Origin: Pseudomonadota bacterium
GTDB taxonomy: Bacteria; Pseudomonadota; Alphaproteobacteria; SHVZ01
DNA: 64,000 nucleotides
NCBI GenBank assembly: GCA_016195085.1
Contig: JACQAG010000071.1
Coordinates: 63,093-127,092, forward strand
Direction: 5' to 3'
Notes under the pieces: model-generated
Database searches by the model: none
What the model was told of the DNA's origin: nothing
Seen by the model: only the letters and a program-made list of their open reading frames with translations
Translations under genes and position numbers: made by a program
Shown here: positions 15,597-60,990 of the stretch, in pieces
Layout of the letters: each line of letters begins with the position of its first letter
Position numbering within the stretch: the stretch's first letter is position 1

Positions 15597-16397
15597 ATGG
15601 CGGCAAAGCCGATCCTCTTGACCGGTGCGGCGGGCGCGCTCGGCCGCTATCTCCGGCCGAAGCTGATCGAGGCCTATGGCCGCTTGCGCAGCGCCGACAA
15701 GGTGAGCTTCGCGCCGGCGCTCAATGGCGAGGAGCAGGTCGTCTGCGACCTCCACGATCTCGCGGCGGTCGAGCGCATGGTCGAGGGCACGGAAGCGATC
15801 CTGCATTTCGGCGCCTATTCCGTCGAGGCCGATTGGGAGACGATCCTCCACTCCAACATCATCGGCACCTACAACGTCTTCGAGGCGGCACGGCGCAAAG
15901 GTATCAAGCGCCTGGTCTTCGCCTCCTCCAACCACGCCATCGGCTTTCACACCGTCGAGACCAGGCTCGATGCCACCTCGCTGCAGAAGCCGGACAGCTA
16001 TTACGGCGTCTCCAAGGCGTTCGGCGAGGATCTCGGCAGCCTCTATGTCGACAAGCACAACCTCGAGGTCGCCTGCCTCAGGATCGGCTCCTGCTTGCCC
16101 GAGCCGAAGGAGGCTCGCCATCTCTCGACCTGGCTCAGCTATCCCGATTTGCTTCGCCTCATCCAAGCTTGTCTGGAGGCGCCGTTCCTCGGCTTCACCA
16201 TCATGTACGGCATGTCCAACAACACCAGAAGCTGGTGGGACAATTCGCTCTCGCCCCATGTCGCCTACCGGCCAGAGGACAATGCCGAGACCTACGCCAA
16301 GCAGATCCTGAGCCATGGCGATCCGCGGCCGGAAGGCGATCCGGCGCGCCGCTTCCATGGCGGCCCGTTCACCAGCGACGGCTACGTCCGGCGCTGA
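15597..16397 (+). CDS. udh: Uronate dehydrogenase (NAD-dependent epimerase/dehydratase fold)
   Basis: Strong resemblance to Agrobacterium/Pseudomonas Udh: LLTGAAGALG, VFASSNHAIGFH, YGVSKAFGEDL, RIGSCLPEP, STWLSYPD, WWDNS. Start 1 bp after the upstream stop. Confidence 0.75.
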   Translation: MAAKPILLTGAAGALGRYLRPKLIEAYGRLRSADKVSFAPALNGEEQVVCDLHDLAAVERMVEGTEAILHFGAYSVEADWETILHSNIIGTYNVFEAARRKGIKRLVFASSNHAIGFHTVETRLDATSLQKPDSYYGVSKAFGEDLGSLYVDKHNLEVACLRIGSCLPEPKEARHLSTWLSYPDLLRLIQACLEAPFLGFTIMYGMSNNTRSWWDNSLSPHVAYRPEDNAETYAKQILSHGDPRPEGDPARRFHGGPFTSDGYVRR

Positions 16398-16819
16398 GCT
16401 CAAGCACCGCGCTGATTCGGTCACGAGTGTTCCTCTGGCCCGATTGAGATGCCGGCCGAAGCGCCGGCGGCAGTCCGCGGGGCCGCCTCCCCCATGCTTT
16501 TGCTGCTCTGCCAGGCCGGGCCTTCGCGGGCGCAACATATGCTAGCCTGCAATGCTCACCCGCTATTCCTAGTAGGTCGGACAATGCTCGACAGTTTTTG
16601 GTAAAACTCGTGCATTAATCAAGTAACCATCGGCAAGCGTCCCGATAGGCGACAACCTTGATCGGACTAAGAAAATTCATCCGTTTTTCTTGAAGAGAAT
16701 TAGTTGAACAGATATAAACCTCGAAATGGGGTGTCACCTGTTTCAGTTGTTCAGCCGGTAATAGTTGAAACCTTCCGGTGCAGCGGGGCAGTGCGGATGT
16801 TTGACGAGGTTGTAGCCTG

Positions 16820-18142
16820 ATGGGCGGTGTGGCGGGGCAGCAGAACGAAGAGCCGAAACGGTTCGTCAGGATCGACGACGACGCGCTCAAGGACGCCCTC
16901 GACTGCCATCTGCGCTTCATCAAGGGTGCGCGCGGCGGACGGCGCGCGACCCTCGCCCGGCGCGATCTTTCGAACCGCGACCTGACCGGGGTCAATCTCG
17001 CCGGCGCCGATTTGACCGGGGCCAAGCTCGCCGGCACCAAGCTTACCCGGGCCGCCCTGGCCAATGTCATCCTGTTCGGCGCCGATCTGCGCTCCATCAC
17101 CGCGCAAGGGATTGACCTGACCAAGGCGGATCTGCGCGGTGCCTGCCTCAGCGGCGCCGATCTCACCAATGCGATCCTGACCGAAGCCGACATGCGCGAG
17201 GGCGAGGTAGCTTATGTCGAGGAAGGCGACCTCACCACGAACCGGCAGAAGCTCACCCCCTCCGACATGACGGCCGCGGTGATGCGGCGGGCGGATCTGA
17301 GCCGCGCCCGCTTCTCCAAGGCCTCCGGCGCGCAGGTCGATCTGAGCGACGCGGTGCTGCGCGGCGCGCGCATGAATGGCGCCGATTTGCGCAACGCCAA
17401 TTTGACCGGCGCCATCCTGGTGCAGGCGGACCTGACCGATTCCAATTTGAGCGGCGCCACGTTGTTCGGTGCGGTTCTGACCGACTCGACCTTGACCCGC
17501 GCCGACGTGACCGGCGCCAAGCTGTTCGGCACCATCATGAACGGCGACATCAGCAAATCCGGCGCCAAGGGCACGCCGGTGAAGCCGGGAACGCCGCCGC
17601 CGAAGCCGATCGCCGAGATGATCGCGGCGCACCTGGAATGGGTGGAATCCGGCGGCGCCAAGGGGGTCCGCCTGGAGCTTCCGGGCGCCGATCTGAAGGG
17701 TGCGGATTTCCGCGACGCCAACCTCGCCGGCGCCAAGCTCACCGGGGCCGAGCTGGCGCGCGCGAATTTCAGCGGCGCCAGGCTGCTTTTTGCCGATTTC
17801 GGCTTCTGCGACATGCGCGATGCGAAGCTGCGTCGCGCCGATCTGCGCGGCGCCGATTTCAGCCGCGCGTTTGCTGGCGGCGCCGATCTGAGCGAGGCCA
17901 TCCTCGGGCTCCATGGCAAGGGTTCGAGCGATCCGGTGAGACCGACCAAGCTCACCAAGGCCCGGCTGTGGAGCGTGCGCCTCAAGGGTGCGCATCTCTG
18001 CCGCGTCGATTTGAGCGGCGTCGACCTGACCGGCGCCGACTTGACCCAGGCCGATCTGCGCGAAGCCGATCTGCGCGGCGCCACGGTGACGCCCGAGCAG
18101 CTGGCGGTGGCGATCACCACCCTCTCCGGCACCGCCGACTGA
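16820..18142 (+). CDS. Pentapeptide-repeat protein (two large repeat blocks, 440 aa)
   Basis: Dozens of A(D/N)LxG-type pentapeptides (ADLTGAKLAGTKLTRAALANVILFGADL...). Each repeat block is preceded by an HLxW/FxxSGG helix. Confidence 0.8.
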   Translation: MGGVAGQQNEEPKRFVRIDDDALKDALDCHLRFIKGARGGRRATLARRDLSNRDLTGVNLAGADLTGAKLAGTKLTRAALANVILFGADLRSITAQGIDLTKADLRGACLSGADLTNAILTEADMREGEVAYVEEGDLTTNRQKLTPSDMTAAVMRRADLSRARFSKASGAQVDLSDAVLRGARMNGADLRNANLTGAILVQADLTDSNLSGATLFGAVLTDSTLTRADVTGAKLFGTIMNGDISKSGAKGTPVKPGTPPPKPIAEMIAAHLEWVESGGAKGVRLELPGADLKGADFRDANLAGAKLTGAELARANFSGARLLFADFGFCDMRDAKLRRADLRGADFSRAFAGGADLSEAILGLHGKGSSDPVRPTKLTKARLWSVRLKGAHLCRVDLSGVDLTGADLTQADLREADLRGATVTPEQLAVAITTLSGTAD

Positions 18143-18201
18143 TCTCCGCGAGGCGGCGATCGGCGCCCGAGATGCGCGGACTTTAGGTTGAATTCCATAT
18201 A

Positions 18202-18217
18202 TTAATCAAACGTTAAG
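18202..18217 (+). promoter_or_regulatory. CtrA-box-like motif TTAA-N7-TTAAG upstream of the PilZ gene
   Basis: TTAATCAAACGTTAAG located 70-85 bp upstream of the ATG at 18287. A GTAACCAT 8-mer-like half-site also occurs at about 16624..16631, upstream of the pentapeptide gene. Confidence 0.3.
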
Positions 18218-18286
18218 CGGGTTACGCGAGCATGTCCGTATGACCTCCGAGAAGCGGAGGAGTGGTGACGGCATTGCGAGGTAGCC

Positions 18287-19102
18287 ATGGCGGTAGCAGT
18301 ACAATCCGCGCAATCGCGCCAAGAGCTCGAGCAAGCGCTGGTCAAGCGGGCCGAGGCCGAGTTCGAGAAGATGATCGGCGATGCGGCAAACGGCAATCCC
18401 GATGCCGTCGAGCGCAAATCCAACCGTGTGGCCGAGATCGCCAAGGACAAGGCGTTCCCGATGGCGCGGCGAAAGGAGTTCCAGGACCGCTGCAAGCTCT
18501 TGCTGCGGCAAGCCTACGAGATGAGCGTGAATCTCTTTCTCGACGACGCCAATGGTGCCGTCAGGGCGGGCGACGAGGAGCGCAAGAACAAGCTCATCAC
18601 CAAGGCCAAGGAGCACTACTCCATGGCGCTGCGCGCCGGCGCTGATGAGGACTTCAAGCTCGCGGTCAAGCGCAAGCTGGAGATGATCGGCATGACCAGC
18701 CCCGCCGGCACCAGCGAGAAGGCGAAGAAGGCGGCTGAGGACGAGGCGGCGAAGCCGCAGCCCGTCTCCAAGGCTCCGAACGGGGTCGAGCGCCGACGCG
18801 CCATCCGCTACAACGATCCGCTGGTCACCGCGACCATCGCCGGCACCAGCTACAAGACGGTGAACTGGTCGATCCGCGGCCTCTTGATCGAGGCCTATCA
18901 GGGTCCGCTGGCGGTCGGCGACAAGGTCACCATCGGCGTCTCTTGGGAAGGCAGCAAGGAGGCGGGGCTGTCGCCGGCGCGCGTCGTACGCCGGGACGCG
19001 GAAGCCGGCCTGATCGCCGTCGAGTTCAACGGCATCGACGGCAACATGCTGCGTTTGGCCCACGCCATGCGCCTGCAGGAGATCGCACCCTCGCCGGAAT
19101 GA
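18287..19102 (+). CDS. PilZ-domain protein with N-terminal Lys/Glu-rich helical domain
   Basis: C-terminal PilZ signatures RRRAIRYN (RxxxR) and NWSIRGLLIE (D/NxSxxG); GAGGTAG SD before the ATG. Confidence 0.65.
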   Translation: MAVAVQSAQSRQELEQALVKRAEAEFEKMIGDAANGNPDAVERKSNRVAEIAKDKAFPMARRKEFQDRCKLLLRQAYEMSVNLFLDDANGAVRAGDEERKNKLITKAKEHYSMALRAGADEDFKLAVKRKLEMIGMTSPAGTSEKAKKAAEDEAAKPQPVSKAPNGVERRRAIRYNDPLVTATIAGTSYKTVNWSIRGLLIEAYQGPLAVGDKVTIGVSWEGSKEAGLSPARVVRRDAEAGLIAVEFNGIDGNMLRLAHAMRLQEIAPSPE

Positions 19103-19791
19103 GCGCGCTCGAGCGCTGGCGGCGGAGGATCGGCGGGACCCAGCTTTGCTACGGTCGCGCGGCCATGGAGCCGCACGCCGTCAGCCATCTCCCGCATGCC
19201 GGCGATCATGACTTCGACCGAGGCCTTGTTCGAGGCATGGTCGCTGTTGCCGCCGAGCCAGACGAGCGCGGCCAGGCCGAACAGCCCCAAGACTTCCCGA
19301 TCGAGCTGCATGAGCGCCTCACCGTCGCCCGCAGCGATAGGCCGCGCCACCCCGCGGCTCGAACGGACGCCGCGGGGACTTCCCCCGAGCTCCGCTGCCG
19401 ATGCCACGCGGAGCCGCCGCTCGCCGGCACCCAAAGGCGCGGTACGCGGGATCGGCTCCGGCGCGGTGCCTTCACCCGGGTCGGAGGCCTGTATCAGCAC
19501 CGCCCACGAGACGGCGGATCGCTTCTTCGCCGCGGGCGCATCGGCCACGGTCGAGGCGGTCGAGAGCACGAGCATCAACAGCAGTGATTCGACGAGCCTC
19601 CTTGCGAGGATGGCGCTGCCAGCCATGTGCGTTCCCCCCCGGGCATCCCTCCGCACAGTGGCGATCCGATGTTCTGAGTCGAATGCACCTCACGACGGGT
19701 AGACGGCGATTGCGTATCTCCCCGACTGTCCCCACACGGTCTCGTCTCCAGATGCGCTGAGTCTAAACCTGGCCGCCAGCGAAATATGCGT

Positions 19792-57609: not shown

Positions 57610-57701
<92 letters not shown>

Positions 57702-60060: not shown

Positions 60061-60432
60061 CTACTGGCGGCCCAGCACTTTGCTGACCGCGGCGACCAGC
60101 TCGCTCGGCCTGAACGGCTTTTCGAGGGTGAGGGTGGCACCTGACACCTTCGCCAGCTTGAGGAAGTTCATGAGCTTGGCGCCGGTGTTTCCGGACATGG
60201 CGATGATCGGCACCGAGGGATCGAAGGCGCGCATGGCGCGGATCGTCTCGATGCCCTCGCGATTGGGCATGATGAGGTCGGTGACGACGACGTCCGGGCG
60301 CGCCTGCTTGAATTGCTCGAGCCCGAGCTGGCCGTCCGCCGAGGTGCGGATGACATGACCTTCACGGCTCAACACCTGCGCGAACAGCCGGCGCGCTGCC
60401 GCATCATCGTCAATCACCAGGACCGAAGCCAT
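60061..60432 (-). CDS. Single-domain response regulator (CheY-like receiver)
   Basis: VLVIDDD...D(54)-equivalent VVVTDLIMP...conserved T/S and K (EKPF); 123 aa. Confidence 0.85.
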   Translation of the reverse strand: MASVLVIDDDAAARRLFAQVLSREGHVIRTSADGQLGLEQFKQARPDVVVTDLIMPNREGIETIRAMRAFDPSVPIIAMSGNTGAKLMNFLKLAKVSGATLTLEKPFRPSELVAAVSKVLGRQ

Positions 60433-60990
60433 GTCAGGTGCGTCTCTCGAGACTACAAGGACTCTGTCGTCATTCTACACGCGCCAGGACCGAGAGCGCC
60501 GATGCCACGCTCAATCCGGCGAACGCCGGGAACGCATCGGCGCCCATCATACGCCCTGGCGGGGTTGACGCTAGCTGGCCGCTTTCCATGCGCGCCAAGG
60601 CGCATGTTGATGGCAGCCCATATTCCGCAACGGGAAAATAATGTTTATTTGCACTTTGAGGTAATAGTTAAAATCATTCGATCTTGCCGTAATTTTGACT
60701 GTTGCTGCCTAACGCAGGGACAGGATTTGTCTGGTTAATTGTTAAGCTTTCATGGGCATCGATGATCGCCGGGGGTGCGGGCGGTCCGATCGAAGGCACC
60801 CCCCCCCCCAAAGCGGCGGCGAAGCGGTCCGGGAACGGCTTTGCGGCCAAGAAAACCCGGGCCTAAATGCCCGGGCCTAAAGGATTGACCCGGGGTCGCC
60901 GGTGGCTATTATCCCGGCTCCGCGCGCGGGGGCCCCCTCCGGGTTGGTGAGGGGCGCCCGCGGCGCTTTCATTTATGAAGACGGCATCCC

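Follow-up and report, generated by a model that had tools for sequence, protein, structure and literature searches.

Introduction

In the Alphaproteobacteria, RpoD promoters have a TTGACA-like -35 element, a spacer of about 17 nt and a TATAAT-like -10 element, with an A/T-rich, UP-like tract upstream. The classical CtrA promoters of Caulobacter and other Alphaproteobacteria carry a site of the form TTAA-N7-TTAA(C), or the 8-mer TTAACCAT, which usually overlaps the -35 element.

The intergenic gap described here lies upstream of a gene for a pentapeptide-repeat protein and can be compared with both types. Like RpoD promoters, it contains TTGAAG-N17-TATAAA preceded by TTTTT, which faces the gene and lies about 100 nt from its ATG; unlike the RpoD consensus, the final base of the -10 element in the gap is A or G and not T. 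Like CtrA promoters, the gap has one TTAA and a 7/8 match to the 8-mer, GTAACCAT. Unlike them, this site is without a second half-site, is positioned far upstream of the -35 element, is not conserved and occurs at chance frequency. The riboswitch and leader RNAs of Rfam, the c-di-GMP-I and c-di-GMP-II classes included, are similar to the locus in that there is a long 5' leader and a neighbouring gene of the c-di-GMP-receptor type (PilZ), but the gap is without a match to the 4227 models and without excess folding stability. The targets of MucR/Ros or H-NS are also AT-rich islands in a high-GC genome, here upstream of an accessory-looking pair of genes, though this likeness is one of composition alone. 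Taken as a whole, the tract is most likely an ordinary promoter and leader with an unexplained, modest conserved module upstream.

Locus layout and base composition

The window, meaning the whole 64-kb stretch of DNA that was analysed, is 67.3% GC. The gap spans 16398-16819 (422 bp) and is non-coding according to the ORF map and the third-codon-position GC. It begins where the TGA of a 266-aa, NAD-dependent epimerase/uronate-dehydrogenase-like gene ends (15597-16397, plus strand), a gene that several sources name uronate dehydrogenase. Downstream of the gap is the gene for the pentapeptide-repeat protein (16820-18142, plus strand; 440 aa; Pfam PF00805, E = 3e-68), followed by a gene for a 271-aa PilZ-domain protein (18287-19102, plus strand), which has a weak Pfam PilZ match and is annotated in the source as a PilZ domain-containing protein.

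The sequence-only reading had described a non-coding leader upstream of the pentapeptide-repeat gene that is unusually AT-rich for a genome of ~67% GC, and both parts of this description are confirmed. The figure of about 45% GC that it gave for 420 bp is too low. The 420 bp measure 54.3-54.5% GC, and only the AT-rich part at 16531-16790 (~230-260 bp) comes near that figure, at 46%. The first ~130 bp of the gap (16398-16530) are 70.7% GC. The lowest 200-bp value within the 64 kb, 42.0%, is found at 16571-16770, and the lowest 200-, 300- and 420-bp windows all fall in this gap. The gap had also been called the longest low-GC tract, but the extent of the AT-rich part was overstated, and at the 100-bp scale a second gap is lower still (60604-60703, 36% GC). 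In a high-GC genome, gaps that carry a promoter are usually marked by low GC, as here at 16531-16790.

The second AT-rich gap (60475-60978) is flanked by rplU and by the gene for a single-domain response regulator (60061-60474, minus strand). On its minus strand, TTAACCAT is matched three times with one mismatch (60664-60745), GGTTAATTGTTAAGC being one of these matches, and the gap also has a run of 10 C at ~60800.

No coding frame was found inside 16398-16819 in the third-position GC map, and no peptide in the six frames of the gap is conserved among the window and its two syntenic relatives, L087 and L083. A hidden small gene was considered and rejected: the short ORFs are not kept in the relatives, and the frame that contains TAGTAG differs between the window and L087.

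Relatives and conservation of the gap

Over the gap, the Logan contigs L081 and L082 do not differ from the window. Two metagenomic loci are informative relatives. In L087, the pentapeptide protein is 84% identical, the gap is 306 bp and the PilZ gene is found downstream. In L083, the epimerase is 87% identical and the gap is 291 bp; this contig stops 42 codons into the pentapeptide gene. The ATG and the N-terminus of the pentapeptide protein are kept in both. The syntenic comparison set is thus composed of three sequences: the window, L087 and L083.

Beyond this set, no close relative of the pentapeptide protein was found in the protein collection or the reference genomes (best 39-42% identity). 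The best match in the protein collection is 42% identical, and the loci found by the contig scan are at most 39% identical and occur in other contexts. Epimerase relatives at 67-70% identity carry other genes downstream and are therefore uninformative for this gap. The pentapeptide-PilZ pair beside the epimerase was found only in this small clade.

The 15-billion-protein collection lacks the exact pentapeptide protein, while both of its neighbours are present (100% identical, same MAG). The gene may be unannotated there, may have been given a different start or may be hard to assemble. The two Logan contigs break within the repeat-rich pentapeptide gene (16820-18142).

Across the gap, the window and L087 are 66% identical. 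The third codon positions of the flanking genes are 68-78% identical, and the similarity of the two values indicates that the gap is nearly neutral in its evolution. The gaps of L087 and L083 are AT-rich as well, at 52% GC vs 65-67% for their loci. Of the 308 columns in the three-way alignment, 25% are invariant, and these form five runs of at least 5 nt vs 0.21 expected from column shuffling, a test that errs a little on the generous side, since an aligner itself tends to group matches. The five runs are CGCAA (16531), TAGTAG (16570), TTTT/AAAACT (16595/16603), TTTTCTTGAA (16685-16694) and TATAA (16713-16717).

The GC-rich segment at 16398-16530 (plus strand) is missing from both L087 and L083 in the alignments. 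By this comparison it is a lineage-specific insertion, separate from and unrelated to the AT-rich element. A repeat or mobile element was rejected as an explanation, as no further copies of the segment were found in the window or the fetched loci apart from L081 and L082, which are assemblies of the same sequence. The segment holds GC-rich hairpins, namely GCCGGC-N6-GCCGGC and GGGG-N6-CCCC followed by CTTTTGC, and is possibly a terminator or an insertion remnant.

A predicted promoter and leader of the pentapeptide-repeat gene

The strongest conserved block of the gap is TTTTCTTGAA-N17/18-TATAA, which spans 16685-16717. It begins with a T-tract and a -35 element (16685-16695, plus strand), in which TTTTCTTGAA is invariant in the three-way alignment and the hexamer TTGAAG occupies 16690-16695. 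With 10 nt, TTTTCTTGAA is the longest invariant run (P ~1e-4, column shuffling of the three sequences). The putative -10 element, TATAAA (16713-16718, plus strand), lies 17 nt past TTGAAG, and its TATAA is invariant.

Measured against sigma-70 promoters, TTGAAG matches the -35 consensus at 4/6 positions and TATAAA the -10 consensus at 5/6; the 17-nt spacer falls within the allowed 16-18 nt and the pair is oriented toward the gene. Both hexamers and their spacing are conserved in all three sequences. The spacing from CTTGAA to TATAA is 23/23/23 nt in the window, L087 and L083, and in the same order 102/99/100 nt separate the end of the -10 element from the ATG. The 64 kb contain a single TTGAA-N18-TATAA, but with up to one mismatch it is present in 14% of whole-window shuffles, so the case for a promoter rests on its conservation and not on the motif. 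A strict sigma-70 consensus scan reported no promoter in the gap; it missed TATAAA because the -10 element ends in A or G, not T.

On this evidence, the AT-rich core (~16531-16790) likely provides the pentapeptide-repeat gene with its promoter region and 5' leader. A housekeeping sigma-70-type promoter, composed of the T-tract, TTGAAG, the 17-nt spacer and TATAAA, would drive the gene. Transcription would most likely start near 16725, a position that we infer, as we do the sigma factor, from the promoter elements. The conserved distance from the -10 element to the ATG is consistent with a 5' untranslated leader of ~95 nt (16725-16819, plus strand) with a GAGG Shine-Dalgarno sequence at 16806-16809 as the predicted ribosome-binding site. 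CTTGAA could conceivably be an RpoH-type element instead. From the letters alone, a CtrA-like half-site had been noted and an sRNA, a riboswitch-like leader or a nucleoid-protein-bound promoter suggested; the promoter-like -35/-10 pair shows that the gap does hold conserved regulatory sequence, and the evidence below does not support the half-site, the sRNA or the riboswitch.

In L087, positions 1084-1092 hold TGTGGATAA, a perfect DnaA-box-like 9-mer directly upstream of the pentapeptide ATG. It is not kept in the window, which has GTTGTAGCC in its place, and is thus probably a chance match.

The conserved module upstream of the promoter

Three of the five invariant runs are located upstream of the promoter and are referred to here as module A. 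It starts with the block CGCAAYATWT (16531-16540, plus strand), whose CGCAA is invariant in 3/3 sequences. TAGTAG (16570-16575, plus strand) is likewise invariant in 3/3. The last part is a perfect palindrome, AGTTTT-TGGT-AAAACT (16593-16608), of which TTTT-N4-AAAACT is kept in 3/3. The spacing inside the module is rigid, with 39/40/39 nt from CGCAA to TAGTAG and 33/34/33 nt from TAGTAG to AAAACT in the window, L087 and L083, and the distance from AAAACT to the -35 element varies (86/74/71 nt). The element would thus read CGCAAYATWT-N29-TAGTAG-N19-TTTT-N4-AAAACT, ending in the palindrome and placed ~80-160 nt upstream of the -35 element.

Module A probably holds binding sites for one or more regulators. 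The palindrome AGTTTT-TGGT-AAAACT resembles protein-binding DNA and is a candidate operator for a dimeric regulator. To our knowledge, none of the consensus sequences for EcfG, sigma-54, sigma-28, LexA, FixK/Clr or IHF fits the blocks of the module in all three sequences. A bolder proposal is that 16531-16608 would be a previously undescribed cis-regulatory element, either an operator array or a small structured transcript, that couples the pentapeptide gene to the CtrA- and c-di-GMP-linked PilZ gene; this we regard as improbable.

The CtrA-like string

The string ATTAATCAAGTAACCAT (16614-16630, plus strand) had been proposed as a CtrA-like half-site. Its last part, GTAACCAT (16623-16630), is a real 7/8 match to TTAACCAT, with the mismatch at the first T. 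Matches to TTAACCAT with up to one mismatch occur 9 times in the window vs 6.3 expected, and 22/100 shuffles reach 9, which places the motif search at background. In the AT-rich core, 1 such match was counted vs 0.25 expected; one or more such matches are present in 21% of shuffles. The TTAA at 16615 opens the sequence TTAA-TCAAGTA-ACCA, in which the partner at N7 is ACCA, a 1/4 match to TTAA. TTAA-N7-TTAA with up to one mismatch is absent from the gaps of the window, L087 and L083.

The comparative alignment gives no support for the string either. Its counterpart in L087 is ATTAACGAAGCAAAAAC, where GTAACCAT is replaced by GCAAAAAC. In L083, no counterpart of GTAACCAT exists, and the entire gap is without a TTAA. 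The string at 16614-16630 therefore lacks the full motif, does not rise above background and is not conserved in the orthologous gaps. Judged by these statistics and by the relatives, GTAACCAT is most probably a chance string and not a CtrA site.

The 9-mer ATTAATCAA, said to be shared with the region upstream of the PilZ gene, is indeed present at both 16614 and 18201 and is rare window-wide. Its sharing is at chance level, as some 9-mer is shared between the pentapeptide and PilZ gaps in 32% of shuffles. The link is useful in one respect, because the PilZ gap holds the window's only perfect, conserved TTAA-N7-TTAA.

Boxes of the CtrA type were also seen beside distant homologues of the pentapeptide protein. 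An alphaproteobacterial homologue at 35% identity (L004) has perfect TTAA-N7-TTAA sites at 951-965 and 1058-1072, plus GTTAACCAG upstream, and a 39% homologue (L088) has TTAAGTAAACATTCA, a one-mismatch CtrA box, ~179 nt upstream of the gene. These boxes suggest CtrA control of the pentapeptide family in other lineages. As support for the string at 16614-16630 they were set aside, being too distant to bear on it. No comparable AT-rich leader or promoter was found in L001, L005 and the other distant homologues. Table 2 of PMC3073932 names CC_0350, a pentapeptide-repeat protein of C. crescentus, as directly targeted by CtrA. Neither CC_0350 nor the boxes of L004 rescue the string as a CtrA site.

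Alternative readings of the gap

Control by CtrA would mean that the protein binds the TTAA/GTAACCAT string (16615-16630) and places the pentapeptide gene within a cell-cycle or motility regulon. The conserved perfect CtrA box of the adjacent PilZ gene makes CtrA-type control plausible in the neighbourhood, and ATTAA is kept in L087 at the same offset from AAAACT. The boxes of L004 and L088 and the C. crescentus target point the same way, the last by a likeness of protein class. Weighing against this are the one-mismatch string at background frequency, its absence from both relatives and the failure to find a full site, even with one mismatch allowed, in the gaps of the window, L087 and L083, as well as the position of the string ~60 nt upstream of the -35 element, which it does not overlap. 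Moreover, neither the Caulobacter vibrioides homologue (L005) nor the closest distant homologue (L001) has a TTAA upstream. We hold CtrA binding at this string to be highly improbable. A platform for a nucleoid-associated silencer of the MucR/Ros type or an H-NS-like protein, which could coexist with a promoter, is unlikely as the main role of the AT-rich island. The island is the lowest-GC tract of a 67% GC window, its AT-richness is kept in relatives, and the restriction of the pentapeptide-PilZ pair to a small clade fits such a role. Against it, the third-position GC of the pentapeptide and PilZ genes is native-like (0.85-0.87), so neither gene bears a sign of recent foreign origin, and what is conserved in the gap is short discrete blocks and not general AT-richness.

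The readings that involve RNA were assessed with the 4227 models of Rfam, gathering thresholds being applied to the whole window and a limit of E = 10 to 16200-17000. The sole match at gathering threshold in the window is a tRNA at 57610. Within 16200-17000, no credible match was obtained at E <=10, c-di-GMP classes included; only spurious ones to SNORA84, Ysr224 and RMST_1 appeared. The leader could be a cis-regulatory RNA, such as a riboswitch, a thermometer or a hairpin that occludes the Shine-Dalgarno sequence, governing translation of the pentapeptide protein and perhaps linked to c-di-GMP. Consistent with this, its length is kept at ~95-100 nt, and in the window and L087 the GAGG/GGGG ribosome-binding region has a potential pairing partner in a pyrimidine-rich AACCTYC. 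Of the 28 pairs in the RNAalifold consensus of the leader, 8-9 show compensatory changes, and the consensus outscores shuffled and slid controls (87% of cells paired vs 78% in controls, with 2/500 shuffles reaching this value), though the control is circular because the structure was derived from the same three sequences. The folding z-score of the leader is +0.61, that of the upstream part is -0.42, and the primary sequence of the leader is poorly kept in L083. The pairing probability of the Shine-Dalgarno sequence is 0.53/0.49 in the window and L087 vs 0.57/0.54 in shuffled-upstream controls, and a leader that sequesters it was rejected on this ground. A regulatory RNA in the leader is thus very unlikely, and the earlier suggestion of an sRNA or riboswitch-like leader is not borne out by the Rfam scan, the z-scores or the Shine-Dalgarno pairing. 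Module A might also be a separate element, either a small RNA gene or the terminator or 3' end of the uronate-dehydrogenase operon. Its rigid internal spacing and variable distance to the promoter would suit this, as would the T-run that follows a hairpin in the window and the presence of some hairpin before a T-run in each of the three sequences. The terminator-like scan found 1 weak hairpin with a T-run (16576-16592) vs 0.8 expected, which is chance level. The consensus structure of the module is worth only -2.1 kcal/mol, with hairpins in different registers, and the terminator or sRNA was discarded for want of a consensus structure. The module has no Rfam match, its folding z-score is the -0.42 given above and no promoter-like element precedes it. 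A separate element is distinctly unlikely.

The promoter and leader remain the preferred reading of the gap. The tract carries little weight beyond annotation, in which it should be labelled neither a CtrA site nor an sRNA or riboswitch. As by-products, the analysis defines a candidate promoter for the pentapeptide-repeat gene, itself uncharacterised, and a small set of conserved upstream blocks that could guide experiments.

A candidate CtrA box upstream of the PilZ gene

Upstream of the PilZ gene is a perfect box of the CtrA type, TTAATCAAACGTTAA (18202-18216), which has the form TTAA-N7-TTAA and is separated from the PilZ ATG by 70 nt. TTAA occurs 14 times in the window, and this box is the only TTAA-N7-TTAA in the 64 kb, even with one mismatch allowed. 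A full CtrA box is found in 0.1% of shuffles of the 144-bp PilZ gap. The box lies within a ~50-nt block (18174-18226) that is near-identical in L087, and the remainder of the PilZ gap has diverged. A further perfect box, TTAAGGCAGCATTAA, is found in L169, 90 nt upstream of a 68%-identical PilZ orthologue and recorded as being at the same distance, with different neighbours upstream. No CtrA box was found upstream of the PilZ relatives L167, L168 (72%) and L170 (38%). The family is rare, with 37 database hits.

The site at 18202-18216 thus combines a perfect motif, a frequency above background and conservation. It is a credible CtrA box and marks a likely CtrA-controlled promoter of the PilZ gene. 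If bound by CtrA, it would make a c-di-GMP receptor part of this uncultured lineage's CtrA regulon.

Some features of the surrounding genes were also recorded. Upstream of the PilZ relatives in L167, L168 and L169 (68-72% identical) lie a single-domain response regulator of 123 aa and an ORF of 64-66 aa, and no pentapeptide gene is present. In Caulobacter vibrioides (L005, 4516-4893), the pentapeptide homologue and a response regulator of 125 aa are divergently oriented. Single-domain response regulators therefore recur beside PilZ and pentapeptide homologues. In the window, the minus strand carries an ORF with high third-position GC (18898-19656, 252 aa, GTG start) that shares ~200 nt with the 3' end of the PilZ gene and whose true start probably lies further downstream.
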